A DNA stretch of 64,000 bases from a phage, in the sequence record OZ346187.1; one strand, given 5' to 3'. Below the pieces are notes generated by a model. It had not been told where the DNA came from. It searched no databases and saw only the letters and a program-made list of their open reading frames with translations. Position 1 is the first letter of the stretch, and each line of letters begins with the position of its first letter. A program made the position numbers and the translations under genes. Shown here in pieces: positions 36,488 through 57,372 of the stretch.

Positions 36488-39400
36488 ATGAGTATGTGGA
36501 ATTTTGACTTTGAGGCCTCAGGTCTTCTGGACGAGGAAGATCTTTACTACCATTGTGGCCTGTTTAAAGAGTTGAATAAAAATAATTTTATGTTGTTTTT
36601 GCCTATCAATGATAGATCTCATTACAGTGAAGAGGAGGTTGAAAAAGCAAAACAATTTATGCTGGCAAAGCAAGATATCTATCCTAGCTGCTCTGTCCGT
36701 ATTGCGGATTTCAGCCAGCTTGAATGGTGGTTAACCGGGAACTCCGATTGGTCACCCACATCATTAAGTTGTCACAACTGTTTTAGTTATGACTTTATCT
36801 TGATGGAGAAGCTGTCTGGTATTCATTTTGATATGTTCCGTGATCCCAAGTGTATGGGGACAATCAATAATCATCAGGTGAACCTGTTCGACACTCTGCC
36901 AATGAGTCGTATACTATGGCCCGACAGACCGTTACCTAAAGGATGCCCTGATTCTGTATACAATCCTGTTACAAAACGTATGCAGCAGGTAGGTCCTCAT
37001 GGCCTAATGGCGTGGGGGTACGCTTTAGGAAACCAGAAGGTTAAAATTGATGACTGGAGAAATTTACCTCTGTGGAAGTATGTTGATCGTGTATTCGAGG
37101 ACGTTATCATCCAGGAGCTGCTCTGGAAAGAGCTGGTAGCGGAATCAAAAGGTGTATTCTACGGCAAATCTGACATGCAGAACTTTATGTACGATCCAGC
37201 CAAAGAGAAGCCGAAAGGGTTCAAGAAGATTACCTGGAAGAATGCATTACGCCGAGGCATGCTGCAGCACTTCCTGATGGAGCTGCAGGCCCGTCAGGGT
37301 GTATACTTCGACATAGATGGAGCTATTGCTTTACGTGACCGTTGCGATGCGTGGATGAAAGAAATCGCTGATCGTGTTGAACCACAACTACCTTTAAAAG
37401 AGCTGTCAATGTCTCAGCGGCCCAAGTTCCCTGAAAAGCCGTTTAACCAAGACGGGACAATCTCTAATAATGGTTGGAAATGGTTAAAAGATAAGCTTGG
37501 CTATCCTGTAGACATGAGTGCTTTAGAGTTCAAAGCCCCGCCTAAGCGAGCATTTACCTCTACAGGAGATGTCAGCAAGATGGGGATAAAATGGTGTGAA
37601 GAGATGGGCTGCAAAGACCCCGATAAGATGGCTGATTTCTTGAGAGGCTATATTAAGGGCACCTCCACACCACAACCCTTACCTAAAGAGCTGATGGATC
37701 AGGCAATAAGTGATCTGCAGCAGAAGCGAATGCCTGACTGCAAGATACCTATGAAAATCAGCAATCAGGACGACATCAAGCGATACCTAATCAGTGCTGG
37801 TTGGCTCCCAACAATGTGGAGAACTAAAGATGTAACTAAAGACAGCAAGAAGAAAGCTTTACCTGATGCAGATGTTGATGCACGAGTATATGCATATATG
37901 GACGAGCTTTTGGAGTCAGAGTATTGTGACCTAATTATCAACTTCTGGAACAAAACTGATGCTAAGTTCCAGACAACCGTGCACAAGTTCCGAAGCTTTC
38001 CTAACTCCGAAAGGATTAAAAAGGAAGTATTCGGGAAAATACGTAGAAAAGCCAGGGCACTTATTACTTCTCCGCAACTGAAAGATACGTTTGGACACCT
38101 ATGCCCAAATCTTGAAAAATTGAACGGAGAGATGGCTAAAGATATCGTCTTGTGGTTATCATTGCGAAACCGCAGATCGGTCCTTGATCCAATCAAGGAG
38201 GATAAGGTTGATACTGGTCTTCTTAATCACCCACGTTTGAAGATTGACCATAAGCTTCCTGCTAAAAGCTCTGGATTAACAAACACTTCCAGACAGAAAC
38301 ACAGTATTTGTGCAAACATGCCTAAACCATCTCCTAAAGTGGTTATGGGTAAAGAGATGCGTAGTCTGTGGGGTGTTCCTCCGGGATACTTTGAGATCGG
38401 TATTGACGGGTCCAACTTAGAGCAGCTTATCGGGGCTTGGGGTGCCTTTGAGTTCGACAACGGCCTGTATTATGATGTTGTAAGTAATGGCGATGCACAC
38501 TGTTATTCAGGAGATACACAAATTCTCACGGAGAAAGGGTGGGTGAGGTTTGAAGATCTTGATCCGGGAACACAAGTGTTCCAGTACGATCACAACACCT
38601 CGTCAATGAACCTTGTTACTCCATTAAATTACGTTAAGCGTAGTTATTGTGGGGATATGTATCATTTCCACAACAGTAGTGTGGATTTTATGGTTACAGA
38701 TCAACACAGGATGCTGACTGTGGATCACAGAAGCAATAAATTGTTTGAAGATTTGGCAAAAGACCTGAAAGCAGGTAAAGGGTCTAATTCAGGAAGAAGG
38801 TTTATCCATGCGGCAGAGTTTTATGGGAATACAACCTTATCTCCTGCCCAGGTTAATTTGCTTATTGCTATTCACGATGATGGGCACTTGCATACAAATA
38901 AGGACGGCAGCATCGTGTGCAGGATTCAGGTCGGAAAGGGAAGAAAAGTTGCAACGCTTTTAGATACTTTTTCTGCTCTAAGCCTTAGTTATGTAGAGCA
39001 GAGCGGGAAAACCACAAAAGGGGGCTTACTGGCGAGAAGGTTCCAATTCCACGTTCCGTCCTGGGTATTTGAGTTTTTGGACAACAATAAGGATTTCACC
39101 TATAACCTGATGAACCTTGATAAAGAATCTAAAAACCTGTTTATAGCTTCTTTATCTAACTGGGACGGGTGGGTATCTTCCGAAGGTGGAAAGGTTGCTT
39201 ACTACTCCCAGGCCGAGTGCAGGAAGAAATCTGTAGAGGTGGTGTCTGCGCTGGCTACTCAGTGTGGTTTACGGAATAATACGGTGGCGATTCACAAAAA
39301 AGGTCGTGCCGTGCAGCACAGAATCACAATTGGTAGCAAACAGAGAGCAGGGTTGCTGACACTATCTAAAGAGTCTGTCGAGGTGAGCGGTTCTTTGGTT

Positions 39401-39886
39401 TATTGCGTTACCGTCCCTTCTGGAGCAATCATTGTGAGAAGGAATGGTAAAGTGGCAGTGTGCGGTAACTGTAATAACGCCAAAGCTTACTCTTCTGTAG
39501 CAGGCAAGGAGATTTCCCGTAACGATGGTAAACCTATCACGTATGGGGTTATGTATGGGGCACAAAAAGATAAAGTTGCAGATATGCTGGACATCTCCCC
39601 AGAGTTGGGACAAAGGGTAATCGATGCACTCTGGGATGCCAACCCAGGTCTTAAGGGGCGCAAAGAGGATCTGGAGAAATTCTGGGAAGCAACAGGTAAG
39701 AAGTTTATCTACTCTTTTGATGGTCATGCTATCTGGACCCGATCTAAACACTCTTTACTTAATGCATACCAACAAAATGGCGGTGCATCGTTGTGTGACT
39801 TAGTTGGAATACTCATGCACCACCAGATGGTGAAGCGTGGGTGGTACGATGAAGGTGTTCGTCGTATTATTTATTACCATAAATAA
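36488..39886 (+). CDS. family A (Pol I/T7-like) DNA polymerase with 3'-5' exonuclease domain, interrupted by an intein (1132 aa)
   Basis: Exo I-like NFDFEASGL at the N-terminus; motif A-like IDGSNLEQL followed by GDAH; motif B-like RNDGKPITYGVMYG after the insertion. Confidence 0.85.
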   Translation: MSMWNFDFEASGLLDEEDLYYHCGLFKELNKNNFMLFLPINDRSHYSEEEVEKAKQFMLAKQDIYPSCSVRIADFSQLEWWLTGNSDWSPTSLSCHNCFSYDFILMEKLSGIHFDMFRDPKCMGTINNHQVNLFDTLPMSRILWPDRPLPKGCPDSVYNPVTKRMQQVGPHGLMAWGYALGNQKVKIDDWRNLPLWKYVDRVFEDVIIQELLWKELVAESKGVFYGKSDMQNFMYDPAKEKPKGFKKITWKNALRRGMLQHFLMELQARQGVYFDIDGAIALRDRCDAWMKEIADRVEPQLPLKELSMSQRPKFPEKPFNQDGTISNNGWKWLKDKLGYPVDMSALEFKAPPKRAFTSTGDVSKMGIKWCEEMGCKDPDKMADFLRGYIKGTSTPQPLPKELMDQAISDLQQKRMPDCKIPMKISNQDDIKRYLISAGWLPTMWRTKDVTKDSKKKALPDADVDARVYAYMDELLESEYCDLIINFWNKTDAKFQTTVHKFRSFPNSERIKKEVFGKIRRKARALITSPQLKDTFGHLCPNLEKLNGEMAKDIVLWLSLRNRRSVLDPIKEDKVDTGLLNHPRLKIDHKLPAKSSGLTNTSRQKHSICANMPKPSPKVVMGKEMRSLWGVPPGYFEIGIDGSNLEQLIGAWGAFEFDNGLYYDVVSNGDAHCYSGDTQILTEKGWVRFEDLDPGTQVFQYDHNTSSMNLVTPLNYVKRSYCGDMYHFHNSSVDFMVTDQHRMLTVDHRSNKLFEDLAKDLKAGKGSNSGRRFIHAAEFYGNTTLSPAQVNLLIAIHDDGHLHTNKDGSIVCRIQVGKGRKVATLLDTFSALSLSYVEQSGKTTKGGLLARRFQFHVPSWVFEFLDNNKDFTYNLMNLDKESKNLFIASLSNWDGWVSSEGGKVAYYSQAECRKKSVEVVSALATQCGLRNNTVAIHKKGRAVQHRITIGSKQRAGLLTLSKESVEVSGSLVYCVTVPSGAIIVRRNGKVAVCGNCNNAKAYSSVAGKEISRNDGKPITYGVMYGAQKDKVADMLDISPELGQRVIDALWDANPGLKGRKEDLEKFWEATGKKFIYSFDGHAIWTRSKHSLLNAYQQNGGASLCDLVGILMHHQMVKRGWYDEGVRRIIYYHK
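38501..39469 (+). mobile_element. intein with LAGLIDADG-like homing endonuclease domain inserted in the DNA polymerase (323 aa)
   Basis: In-frame insertion between GDAH and motif B; starts CYSGDTQILTEKG (Hint block A), ends ...VYCVTVPSGAIIVRRNGKVAVCGN then Cys +1; internal LLIAIHDDGH and FIASLSNWDGW resemble LAGLIDADG motifs. Confidence 0.65.
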
Positions 39887-54287: not shown

Positions 54288-54683
54288 TTACTGAAACAGT
54301 GCGGATAAATTACCTTCTGGTGGGAACTTATCTGCCAAAAACGGTGTTAGCACAGTAGCCTTCTGAAGATCTGGGGTCCACTCGTTGTTCAGAACATCCC
54401 AGTAGTACGCAATGTTGCTGTGTGGGTGCCGCATTACGAACTTTTTCCCTTCGTAGTCATCTGAAACCTCTACAGAAGAAATAACAACAGAATCTTCAAG
54501 GGTTTCTTCATAGAAAGATCCACCTTCAAATTTCCAACGAGATGCAAGAGCTCCTGCCTTGAACGCTGCAGATAACGGACTGTCTGCAAGAACATACATT
54601 TCTTGCACTCTGTCGCTGCGATCTTTGCTTCTTACGTTGTATACAGTATCTGAGCTATACTCAACACGGTATAGGCTTACCAT
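54288..54683 (-). CDS. HP-x-S...YW...WTP family protein, copy 1 (131 aa)
   Basis: Shares A..A...W.(F/Y)EG and HP.S....YW......WTP motifs with ORF 56490-56888. Confidence 0.45.
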   Translation of the reverse strand: MVSLYRVEYSSDTVYNVRSKDRSDRVQEMYVLADSPLSAAFKAGALASRWKFEGGSFYEETLEDSVVISSVEVSDDYEGKKFVMRHPHSNIAYYWDVLNNEWTPDLQKATVLTPFLADKFPPEGNLSALFQ

Positions 54684-55042
54684 TACCGCACCTCCTCAAT
54701 AACTTCCACATCTGAGCCCACCACAAATGCAAAAGGACAGGTTTCATGAAAGACATCCGGATCGCCGCCAAGCTTGCTAACAATCTCTCCACCACTAATA
54801 AACACAAGCTCACCGATATTCATCAGATTGCTGAAATAGTACCCATAATGATTAAAGAATGCAGCAGGGTCAGGTAGACTAGTAGCCTCAAGCACTACAT
54901 CAGTTGAGGTTACTTTCTTATCATAACCTCTCGCCTTTTGAGATGCAAGATCTGCAGAATCCTCAGGCGACCGGAGATGCACAGGAATTGTTTCACCAAT
55001 AAAGCGTACTTTCATATTATCACCCAACAACCATAGCTTCAA
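54683..55042 (-). CDS. MKV(K/R)-family small protein (119 aa; alternative start at 55015)
   Basis: Contains MKVRFIGE... and C-terminal GSDVEVIEE like the 56901-57372 paralogs. Confidence 0.4.
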   Translation of the reverse strand: MKLWLLGDNMKVRFIGETIPVHLRSPEDSADLASQKARGYDKKVTSTDVVLEATSLPDPAAFFNHYGYYFSNLMNIGELVFISGGEIVSKLGGDPDVFHETCPFAFVVGSDVEVIEEVR

Positions 55043-55283
55043 AAGGGGTCATGAACGAATAAACGGCATCATCATCTGCTTCAGGGAATGCTCCCAAAGA
55101 CTTCATGTCTGAGCCCTTGACAAATACAAGGTTTTGATCAAAAGCTTCTTGAGGATCAATCCGATACATATTTCGTAGAATATCGCCTACCTCCTCATCA
55201 AGAGGTGAGTATGCTGTGCACGTTTTTCCGATCAAGCTTTGAGAATCAGGGTATCCACCTGAAGTTTTAAAATAAACAATCAT
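55020..55283 (-). CDS. MKVK-family-related small protein (87 aa)
   Basis: GYPD..IGK and VFVKGSDMKSLGA resemble ORF 60786-61019. Confidence 0.4.
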   Translation of the reverse strand: MIVYFKTSGGYPDSQSLIGKTCTAYSPLDEEVGDILRNMYRIDPQEAFDQNLVFVKGSDMKSLGAFPEADDDAVYSFMTPFEAMVVG

Positions 55284-55374
55284 ATAGTATCACCTCTGGT
55301 AAGAGATTGGGATTCCTTTCCCACAAATAATTACAAACCTTCCTTATCGAGGAAGTATGCTAATCCAAGCAGGA

Positions 55375-55644
55375 TTATTCCTCTACAATCTCATACACAT
55401 CCGGAGTTACAATCAACTCTTCTCCGTTACCCGGTGCAACAAACACCACCATGCCTTCAGGTGTGTGCTTTTTAGCCATCTCGATAACATCTTCTCGCAG
55501 AGCTGGCTCCATCAGATCAAAACCTTCACCCAGGGCATCACGAACCACCTTCATATAGTCAACTGGTTGTGCTTCGACAATCATACCTTCAACCAGTCCA
55601 CAGTTTTTGTCTGCCAGCTCAGTTTTGAATAATTTAATTTTCAT
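55375..55644 (-). CDS. small acidic protein (89 aa)
   Basis: ORF; MKIKLF N-terminus, acidic EIVEE end. Confidence 0.4.
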   Translation of the reverse strand: MKIKLFKTELADKNCGLVEGMIVEAQPVDYMKVVRDALGEGFDLMEPALREDVIEMAKKHTPEGMVVFVAPGNGEELIVTPDVYEIVEE

Positions 55645-55781
55645 TTAGAGGTCTCCTCAATTATTTGATATTAATAGCCGTAACCTAACACATTAACTAC
55701 AACTGCGATTGCAAACATAATTTCAAAGCATGCAATCTCTACATTTGGAACTAATTTCTTGATCACACCCATTGTAGCACC

Positions 55782-56099
55782 TCATTCTCTAAAGTCAATC
55801 TTTACTTTGCCTTTCCCCTTACCTTTCTTTCCACCGCATTTAGCCAGTTGACGTGCTGCAACATCTACCATACGGTCAGTTGCCTCGTAAGCATCACTGC
55901 CTTTAGCTTTGGCAATAACTTCTTTTCCAGAATTGTCAAAAATGAACGCCATAACTTCCTGGTGATCATTTTCAACTTTTACACTCACACGTGCATAGTT
56001 GGCAGAGGGATGCAAACGCTCCAGCTTAGACATTTTGTGGGAAATGAAAGACACCATACCTTCAGTGATTTCTACGTTGCCAGTGATTTCAATTTGCAT
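55782..56099 (-). CDS. hpf: ribosome hibernation promoting factor / RaiA-family protein (105 aa)
   Basis: MQIEITGNVEITEGM...KLERL...VSVKVEN...SGKEVIAKAKGSDAYEATDRMVDVAARQLAK aligns along its length with E. coli HPF (MQLNITGNNVEITEAL...VNGGEIHASAEGQDMYAAIDGLIDKLARQLTK); Lys/Gly-rich tail. Confidence 0.8.
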   Translation of the reverse strand: MQIEITGNVEITEGMVSFISHKMSKLERLHPSANYARVSVKVENDHQEVMAFIFDNSGKEVIAKAKGSDAYEATDRMVDVAARQLAKCGGKKGKGKGKVKIDFRE

Positions 56100-56181
56100 A
56101 ACGTGTTCCTTTTAAAGAAGAGGGAACCAAACCCTCTTTGAAAACAATGATACTAAATCTGAAGCGTTGTGTCAACAGTTT

Positions 56182-56472
56182 TTACAGATTGTTGTCGATA
56201 GTTTTTAAAATATCCACAGCAAGATCTGCCATTTTTCGAACATACTCTGCAAACTCAACAGGATCCTTGATCAAAGAATTCACAGGGTCGTACCCTAGAG
56301 CGTTCAAAATGGCTGCAGCATCTACAACCTTCTCATCATTTGCGAAGATCTCTCCATCAAACTTGTAGGTCCATTTTGAGTCAATCTTGGCAGGGAATGA
56401 TTGGTCAACGCTTGTTACACCATCCTTTTTAAACGCTCCGGTGTTATCAGTGTCTAGAACTAAATCCATCAT
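56182..56472 (-). CDS. hypothetical protein (96 aa)
   Basis: ORF in array. Confidence 0.4.
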   Translation of the reverse strand: MMDLVLDTDNTGAFKKDGVTSVDQSFPAKIDSKWTYKFDGEIFANDEKVVDAAAILNALGYDPVNSLIKDPVEFAEYVRKMADLAVDILKTIDNNL

Positions 56473-56489
56473 GTTAGTACCTCACCGTT

Positions 56490-56888
56490 TCAGTTTAGCT
56501 TTTCTTCAACAACCCCATAGCTCGGGACAGAGTCAAGAGCTTTCTGGTTTAAAAGTGGTGTAGCAGAATCTGCAAACGGTGTCCAAGTTTTTGTTCTGGC
56601 ATTCCAGTAATGCTTCACTCTGGAATCTGGATGCACTATAACAAAAACTTTTTCACTTGTCAACACATTAATTTCTTCTACACCCTTGCTGATAATTTCT
56701 CCGTCATAGCCACCAGTCTGGTATCCTTCGTACCAGGTTCTTGCATATGCATAGCCAGCCTGCCAGCATGCAGCCTCCTCCGAGGTGGAGACTACGTAGA
56801 AGTCTTTCTCAAATTCTGGGATACGCCCTTGCTTTACGCTCCAAGCTCCGCGAATTTTCATTGTAACTTTGAACAGTTTATTTTTCAC
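56490..56888 (-). CDS. HP-x-S...YW...WTP family protein, copy 2 (132 aa)
   Basis: Paralog of ORF 54288-54683. Confidence 0.45.
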   Translation of the reverse strand: MKNKLFKVTMKIRGAWSVKQGRIPEFEKDFYVVSTSEEAACWQAGYAYARTWYEGYQTGGYDGEIISKGVEEINVLTSEKVFVIVHPDSRVKHYWNARTKTWTPFADSATPLLNQKALDSVPSYGVVEEKLN

Positions 56889-56900
56889 AACGGTTACCCA

Positions 56901-57155
56901 TCACAGCTCTACAATCTCTGCATCTGACCCTGCCCCAAAGGCATAATAGGATTCTTCCCCGAAATAATATTCCGGTGCACCAGCAGCGATCAGGTCTGAT
57001 CCCAAGATAAACACCACGTTGTGGCCTACATAACTGTGATGTTGCCGCACAGGATCATCCCACGGCAACCCTTCAAAGTATACCGCAGGAACGACCTTTC
57101 CCTTCAGGAAGGATTGTCCCAAGTAGACGTTAGAATCAAGAATTTTAACCTTCAT
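56901..57155 (-). CDS. MKVK-family small acidic protein (84 aa)
   Basis: MKVKILD...GKV...GSDLIAAGA...EIVEL; family with 57145-57372 and 60786-61019. Confidence 0.45.
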   Translation of the reverse strand: MKVKILDSNVYLGQSFLKGKVVPAVYFEGLPWDDPVRQHHSYVGHNVVFILGSDLIAAGAPEYYFGEESYYAFGAGSDAEIVEL

Positions 57156-57372
57156 TCTCGTCCTCCACTATCTCTACATCCTCACCAAGGGCAAAGTTGT
57201 AGGTCCACTGGCTGTCAAAGCAGTCCTGAGATGCACCAGCGGAAATAAGATCTGCACCTTTTATTTTTAAAAGGTCAGGATAATCTTCGTTAGGGATAGC
57301 GGTAAACACTTTCCCCACTAAGGGCTCCTGACCAATATAGAAGCTTGAATCTAAAACTTTAACTTTCATCAA
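57145..57372 (-). CDS. MKVK-family small acidic protein (75 aa)
   Basis: MMKVKVLD...GKV...GADLISAGA...EIVED. Confidence 0.45.
   Translation of the reverse strand: MMKVKVLDSSFYIGQEPLVGKVFTAIPNEDYPDLLKIKGADLISAGASQDCFDSQWTYNFALGEDVEIVEDENEG

Follow-up and report, generated by a model that had tools for sequence, protein, structure and literature searches.

Phage-encoded homologs of the bacterial ribosome hibernation factors HPF and RaiA have been described before. The 105-residue protein of phage rV5 (ABI79209) was included among virus-encoded ribosomal proteins by Mizuno et al. (2019; Nat Commun, PMC6375957), where it was found to cluster with the HPFs of Gammaproteobacteria and competition with host factors against ribosome dimerization was suggested, its high conservation being taken as a relatively recent transfer. 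On overexpression in E. coli the rV5 protein was detectable in the lysate; neither 70S nor 100S ribosomes yielded peptides of it after the salt wash, and the 100S level did not change, with growth phase, the stringent salt washes or a true loss of binding given as caveats by the authors (Mizuno et al., 2019; PMC6375957). The gene hpf has also been listed as an auxiliary gene of rV5-like phages (Mathieu et al., 2020). A functional study of a phage HPF was looked for in the literature after 2019 and none was found.

Of the bacterial proteins, E. coli short HPF (YhbH) is a protein of 95 aa under stationary-phase control, and HPFs of this RMF-dependent type turn the 90S dimers induced by RMF into 100S particles. 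RaiA (YfiA, protein Y) has the same fold and the same ribosomal site in the family, and possesses a C-terminal extension beyond the core, as does the phage protein studied here; in RaiA the extension is directed at the RMF site and prevents 100S ribosomes from forming (bioRxiv 10.1101/2025.10.07.680626). S30AE-fold proteins are also present in other large virulent enterobacterial myoviruses, namely Cronobacter phage GAP32 (K4F6Q6) and Escherichia phage PBECO4 (L7TII8). These were not found by tblastn with the phage HPF studied here at E≤1e-5. Given that they share 16–21% identity with it and belong to phrog_8990 rather than phrog_12469, they are regarded as independent acquisitions.

The DNA analyzed here, referred to as the window, is a stretch of 64,000 nucleotides (sequence record OZ346187.1). 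Its last 25 kb are 98.1% identical to Escherichia phage AlexBoehm (Bas56) of the genus Vequintavirus (rV5-like myoviruses), and the 2 kb around the gene of interest (55000–57000) are 100% identical to Escherichia phages AlexBoehm, nomine and PMBT16. An earlier note on this DNA had claimed a phage-encoded HPF/RaiA homolog in a 105-aa ORF at 55782–56099. The ORF was found exactly at this position on the minus strand (the strand having been left unstated), with ATG at 56099 as its start and TGA at 55784–55782 as its stop, and the identity of the surrounding 25 kb to AlexBoehm confirms that the copy is phage-encoded. The features of the locus that are discussed below are as follows.

55782–56099, minus strand: complete coding sequence of the HPF homolog, 105 codons plus TGA, from the ORF list and its translation; the end coordinate 55782 counts the stop codon.
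55833–56099, minus strand: predicted HPF-fold domain, from the Pfam match (residues 3–88), the AlphaFold2 elements and the Foldseek superposition.
55785–55832, minus strand: Lys/Gly-rich C-terminal tail, residues 90–105 (GKKGKGKGKVKIDFRE), predicted to be disordered (pLDDT 42–45).
56107–56111, minus strand: Shine-Dalgarno sequence AAGGA, 7 nt 5' of the ATG of the HPF homolog, read from the sequence.
56147–56175, minus strand: putative sigma-70-like promoter (TTGACA-17 nt-TATCAT) within the 82-nt gap that immediately precedes the HPF homolog.
54288–55283 and 56490–57372, minus strand: paralogous small-gene modules flanking the HPF gene.

The protein is 100% identical to AlexBoehm bas56_0150 (QXV75701.1), annotated as 'ribosome hibernation factor'. 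It is the same gene as that of rV5 (ABI79209) and the 'ribosome hibernation factor' of other Vequintavirus phages, with 99–100% protein identity, the same length of 105 aa and the same genomic position; the C-terminus reads ...IDFRE in the window and ...IDFGE in rV5, and otherwise nothing material differs. In related records the gene is labelled 'ribosome hibernation factor', 'sigma 54 modulation factor', 'RaiA' or 'hpf', and the original rV5 record (DQ832317) also bears such a label. The identification is correct but already known, both from GenBank annotation and from the 2019 publication in which it was partly tested. What is added here is purifying selection on the gene, a putative sigma-70-like promoter, the residue-level remodeling of the binding helix and a Lys/Gly-rich tail, predicted to be disordered, which bacterial short HPFs lack, and the residual interest lies in the function and in the remodeling of helix and tail.

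Membership of the S30AE/HPF-RaiA superfamily was examined with profiles and with a structure prediction. The motifs quoted in the earlier note (MQIEITGNVEITE, VKVE and GKEVIAKAKGSDAYEATDRMVDVAARQLAK) are all present in the translation. The Pfam family Ribosomal_S30AE (PF02482) matched residues 3–88 of the protein over profile positions 1–83 of 88 (E 1.8e-12, 48.3 bits against a gathering score of 23.7), and TIGR00741 (HPF/YfiA) scored 45.9 bits against a cut-off of 40.9, so that the cut-offs of both models are exceeded. The AlphaFold2 model, for which the input was five sequences, had a mean pLDDT of 83, with the element order of HPF (E2–7, H13–29, E33–42, E47–55, E60–67, H70–89) at a pLDDT of about 90. 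In a Foldseek search against the PDB all 35 of the best 35 matches were HPF/RaiA/pY hibernation factors, and the model superposed on V. cholerae and E. coli HPF (4hei, 2rql, 6h4n_x) with an rmsd of 1.1–1.5 A. A profile match and the fold had been named as the two tests of the homology claim; as it passes both, homology to HPF/RaiA is established and the 105-residue protein is a genuine member of the superfamily.

Within the superfamily, the phage protein is by sequence comparison nearest to the gammaproteobacterial short HPF and far from RaiA. The best-scoring NCBIfam model was NF007780 (gammaproteobacterial HPF equivalog) with 55.8 bits, which does not reach the equivalog cut-off of 125. A phmmer search against PDB sequences placed E. 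coli HPF (2rql, 4v8h, 6h4n) on top (E ~5e-12, residues 1–89), and by BLASTP the two proteins were 43% identical over 88 residues (residues 1–88, E 5e-18), sharing the N-terminal MQ(L/I)xITG(N)NVEITE. The fold of E. coli HPF (2rql, 6h4n chain x) superposes on the phage protein at 1.2–1.5 A, and R83, K87, K91 and K26 are common to both. RaiA membership was ruled out by a score of 17.6 bits against the cut-off of 158 of the RaiA equivalog (NF007654), by 25% identity to the E. coli RaiA sequence used and by a tail which is basic, not acidic. Membership of the long (Gram-positive) HPFs was also rejected, the phage protein having 105 aa against about 180–190 aa, no second Pfam domain and a tail predicted to be disordered. 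It should also be noted that short HPFs have about 95 aa with about 8 residues after helix alpha2, a length which the phage protein exceeds with its 105 aa and 18-residue tail.

The rRNA-contacting residues were compared in an alignment of the phage protein and a diverse set of 21 bacterial representatives. In Gram-negative HPF/YfiA the strictly conserved rRNA-contacting residues of helix 2 are K80, R83, K87, K89 and K91, with K26/Q29 located near m3U1498, T53/H62 at m2G966 and H55/E60 at the uS9 tail, and beta1 is said to contribute extra ribosome contacts in HPF (bioRxiv 10.1101/2025.10.07.680626). Three of the five basic residues of helix 2 are kept in the phage protein (R83, K87 and K91), while K80 is replaced by V and K89 by G; in the divergent phage lineage described below (protein P0004) these two positions are T and S, respectively. 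E. coli K26 is kept (K25 of the phage protein) and Q29 is replaced by R. Further changes at family-conserved positions are R17 to V, T53 to F/R, H55 to F and I74 to T, and the near-universal DMYxAID motif reads DAYEATD. Relative to E. coli HPF itself the differences are K80V, K89G, R17V, T53F, H55F and DMY to DAY. About ten family-conserved positions are altered in all, and as most of these are altered in both phage lineages the changes are considered derived and maintained, not drift. Residues 1–20, which comprise beta1 and the start of alpha1, are identical at 19 of 20 positions between the two lineages. The altered conserved positions could represent weakened or redirected binding.

The C-terminal tail also differs from that of the host factors. 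The 18 residues after K87 (CGGKKGKGKGKVKIDFRE) carry a net charge of +5, whereas E. coli HPF has 8 residues after the equivalent lysine (tail HKDKLKQH) with a net charge of +2 and the tail of RaiA is longer and acidic (26 residues, net −4). The tail of P0004 is also basic, with a different sequence. From its composition, the phage tail may be suited to RNA or other nucleic-acid binding. Some variation was seen among alleles. That of phage Murica (L009, 151–450) has a 1-nt deletion in the G/A run coding for the tail (window 55800–55830), giving a protein of 99 aa which ends in ...GKGKAK, the tail being shortened with the GKKGKGK part kept, and some alleles have NN instead of N at residue 8, like E. 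coli HPF. The deletion in Murica, lying in a run of low complexity, may be either genuine or an error of sequencing.

Upstream of the gene, the putative promoter lies in the intergenic gap on the coding strand and matches 11 of 12 consensus positions; the call is a consensus match, the total count of such sites in the region not being above shuffled expectation. The AACTGTTGACAC box was found again upstream of the ortholog in the divergent lineage (L003). Within the rV5 genome, 33 E. coli-like promoters were reported genome-wide, and 88 small ORFs form a block to which the region of the HPF gene belongs (PMC3606486). The HPF homolog apparently has its own independent promoter, apparently of a constitutive type, in contrast to the stationary-phase control of E. 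coli HPF. Expression by the host polymerase early in infection would be expected, the timing being taken from the consensus promoter match. A stem-loop in the 5'-UTR (56119–56137, −9.9 kcal/mol, z −0.94) was rejected, being no better than shuffled sequences and missing in the divergent lineage. A further promoter-like site (TTGACT-16-TACAAT with a TG extension, 55798–55771) was seen within the 3' end of the HPF gene. The start of a 33-aa hydrophobic ORF (55671–55772, minus strand; 'hypothetical' in the AlexBoehm annotation) lies 10 nt past the HPF stop codon, which is overlapped by its ribosome-binding site GAGGTG.

The earlier note had named shut-off of host translation, preservation of ribosomes and counteraction of defense as possible roles. 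HPF-type factors compete with, and exclude, mRNA and tRNA, and for this reason they act on idle and not on translating ribosomes. The reading preferred here, which is given an even chance of being correct, is that the phage protein occupies this ribosomal site and modulates hibernation as a competitor or protector. Host RNA polymerase, unmodified, would probably transcribe the gene from its own sigma-70-type promoter. The protein would then occupy the HPF/RaiA site, that is the channel at the 30S decoding centre of unoccupied host ribosomes, using the retained contacts R83 (to m4C1402), K87, K91 and K25 (E. coli K26) together with the face of the beta-sheet, and the long flexible polylysine/glycine tail may compensate for the lost K80 and K89. 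It would cap and protect idle ribosomes reversibly, rivaling host RaiA and HPF+RMF and possibly also keeping nucleases off the capped ribosomes, and the tail, like that of RaiA, may extend in the direction of the RMF site. The ribosome pool would by this means remain undamaged and monomeric, ready for rapid reuse on phage mRNAs, rather than being hibernated by the host or degraded.

Binding to the HPF/RaiA site is inferred from the 43% identity to HPF, the retention of R83, K87, K91 and K26 and the RNA-suited tail. A role as competitor or protector is favored because the phage needs ribosomes, and comes without RMF, and because overexpression of the rV5 protein did not raise 100S. No RMF homolog was detected in 50,697 phage records with a validated RMF query, and the phage therefore brings no dimerizing partner. 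Several observations stand against this preferred reading: the rV5 protein was absent from purified 70S and 100S ribosomes, with 100S unchanged (Mizuno et al., 2019; PMC6375957); of its five strictly conserved rRNA-contacting residues, helix 2 lacks the lysines K80 and K89, and other family-conserved positions are changed; and the HPF equivalog model is missed (55.8 against 125 bits). The present results would also fit an effect in either direction, be it anti-hibernation with protection or inhibition. Host HPF and RMF are themselves salt-labile. Owing to exponential-phase expression and the stringent salt washes, the published negative is considered weak evidence either way.

A further reading is put forward tentatively, as a possibility with the balance against it. 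The protein might act as an anti-hibernation or anti-dormancy factor instead of a hibernation factor, being a remodeled HPF which binds the site weakly and reversibly (K80 and K89 being lost) with its polylysine tail on the path to the RMF site, displacing RaiA and HPF-RMF or shielding the decoding centre and the 16S 3' end from nucleases and ribosome-targeting defense toxins. Ribosome hibernation is one way in which starved or defense-arrested bacteria become poor hosts, and were this the case the phage could translate in starved, stationary or defense-arrested cells. Ribosome-contacting phage genes are rare. With HPF universal in a well-studied, therapy-relevant genus (rV5-like, at least 10 phages of the BASEL collection), the gene is a tractable entry to the handling of dormant ribosomes, for which the residue differences and the basic tail offer concrete mutants.

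The host shut-off that would be expected of a classical HPF is considered unlikely. By this explanation the protein would sit in the decoding centre and convert ribosomes, together with host RMF, into inactive 70S and 100S particles, damping early host translation or parking ribosomes. The greatest similarity is indeed to the short, RMF-dependent HPF, the fold is the same and the central R83/K87 contacts are kept. However, HPF-type factors silence idle and not translating ribosomes, and the phage needs the same ribosomes. Host RMF is a stationary-phase protein, no RMF is encoded by the phage, and an 18-residue basic tail exceeds that of short HPFs and may clash with the RMF site like that of RaiA. 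Overexpression of the rV5 protein was also without discernible change in 100S (PMC6375957).

It is also rather improbable that the HPF fold was exapted and now serves to bind a partner other than the ribosome, whether a host protein or a different RNA, with any action on ribosomes given up. The negative published test of ribosome association (PMC6375957) would fit such a role, as would the change of about ten conserved positions, including two rRNA-contacting lysines, mostly in both lineages. T7 Gp1.2, a dGTPase inhibitor, shows that phages use such a fold for other targets, and among the fold matches it followed directly on the hibernation factors (Foldseek rank 36; rank 10 in a further search). 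Kinship with Gp1.2 was rejected, the similarity being too weak (TM 0.45, 13% identity), and this counts against exaptation, as do the 43% identity to host HPF, which is high for a retargeted protein, the retention of the most central rRNA contacts and a polylysine tail which suits nucleic-acid binding.

The distribution of the gene was examined in phage records and in larger protein sets. It was found in 118–119 phage records by tblastn, at an identity of at least 90% in 118 of these, equal to the number of records in which the genus-type DNA polymerase is present at the same threshold. It was not found by tblastn in about 220 more distant relatives (Certrevirus, Klebsiella and Cronobacter phages, and ICP1), and no record of the phage collection lay at 60–90% identity to the window HPF. 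As its presence matches the DNA polymerase count and the distant relatives have none, it is a core gene of the genus Vequintavirus and not of the subfamily. An exhaustive search of 1.84 billion representative proteins gave 22 matches at E≤1e-3, among which the best non-phage match had 45% identity, no bacterial protein in the set exceeding this value. A match to a 1160-aa repeat protein (P0006), consisting of eight short matched stretches, was treated as spurious and driven by composition. A word-indexed search returned near-identical proteins plus a single lineage at 64% and nothing else, and IMG/VR contained two loci, both Vequintavirus-like.

This second, divergent rV5-related lineage (P0004; L003–L005) is known from assemblies only (Logan ERR6997038, ERR4623478 and SRR25571739; contigs of 126–137 kb). 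It contains a syntenic HPF ortholog at 64% identity, which exceeds that of most neighboring small genes, the neighbors overall being 29–87% identical. Between the two lineages the HPF core has a pS of 0.79 (saturated) and a pN of 0.23, a pN/pS of about 0.3. The lack of a bacterial match above 45%, the synteny and the saturated pS with a low pN indicate that the gene is old in phages and under purifying selection, which argues against a 'relatively recent transfer' and against a passenger gene. An rV5-like ancestor long ago captured it from a gammaproteobacterial short-HPF gene. That it is a neutral passenger, taken from a host not long ago and of no use to the phage, could draw on the reading of high conservation by Mizuno et al. 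(PMC6375957), but is effectively refuted by the conservation pattern, with no close match among the 1.84 billion representatives, universal presence in the genus and synteny in a lineage with saturated synonymous sites and a pN/pS of about 0.3.

The HPF gene had also been described as lying between two copies of a duplicated small-gene module. Paralogs are indeed present on either side of it, though only as old, diverged copies. The 131-aa (54288–54683) and 132-aa (56490–56888) genes are 28–31% identical (E 3e-11), and the 110-, 84- and 75-aa genes form a second paralog family. The order of genes on the minus strand, by length in aa, is 75-84-132 / 96 / HPF / 33 / 89 / 87-110-131, a small-small-large order on both sides of the HPF gene. 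One copy only of the 131/132-aa gene is present in L003 of the divergent lineage. None of nine neighboring ORFs had a significant match against Pfam, that of the 33-aa ORF being at chance level (E 0.078). The 89-aa ORF (55375–55644, minus strand) is labelled as a second 'sigma 54 modulation factor' in MN850649 and its sister records. This candidate was rejected, and the label is likely a propagated annotation error, as the ORF neither matches Pfam/S30AE nor resembles the HPF gene. In MT884008–MT884011 and OR062530 the HPF gene proper bears the erroneous label 'ATP-dependent protease La type I'.

Some further observations were made within the window and among the related records. Phage tRNAs are discussed in the rV5 genome paper (PMC3606486); ARAGORN found no tRNA genes within window positions 1–64000, and any such genes must therefore lie outside it. 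The DNA polymerase ORF (36488–39886, plus strand) encodes 1132 aa, of which 71% is covered, by two separate alignments, in most of the Vequintavirus relatives. A coverage of at least 80% was reached in seven records only, and a sub-threshold match to a Hint domain begins at residue 672. This suggests that the DNA polymerase of the window may carry an in-frame intein-like insertion of about 330 aa. Finally, 16–20 'Campylobacter phage' records (MG0656xx, host C. jejuni) were found to be 94–99% identical to E. coli rV5-like phages, as compared over the HPF region and the DNA polymerase, and the C. jejuni host label of these records looks doubtful.
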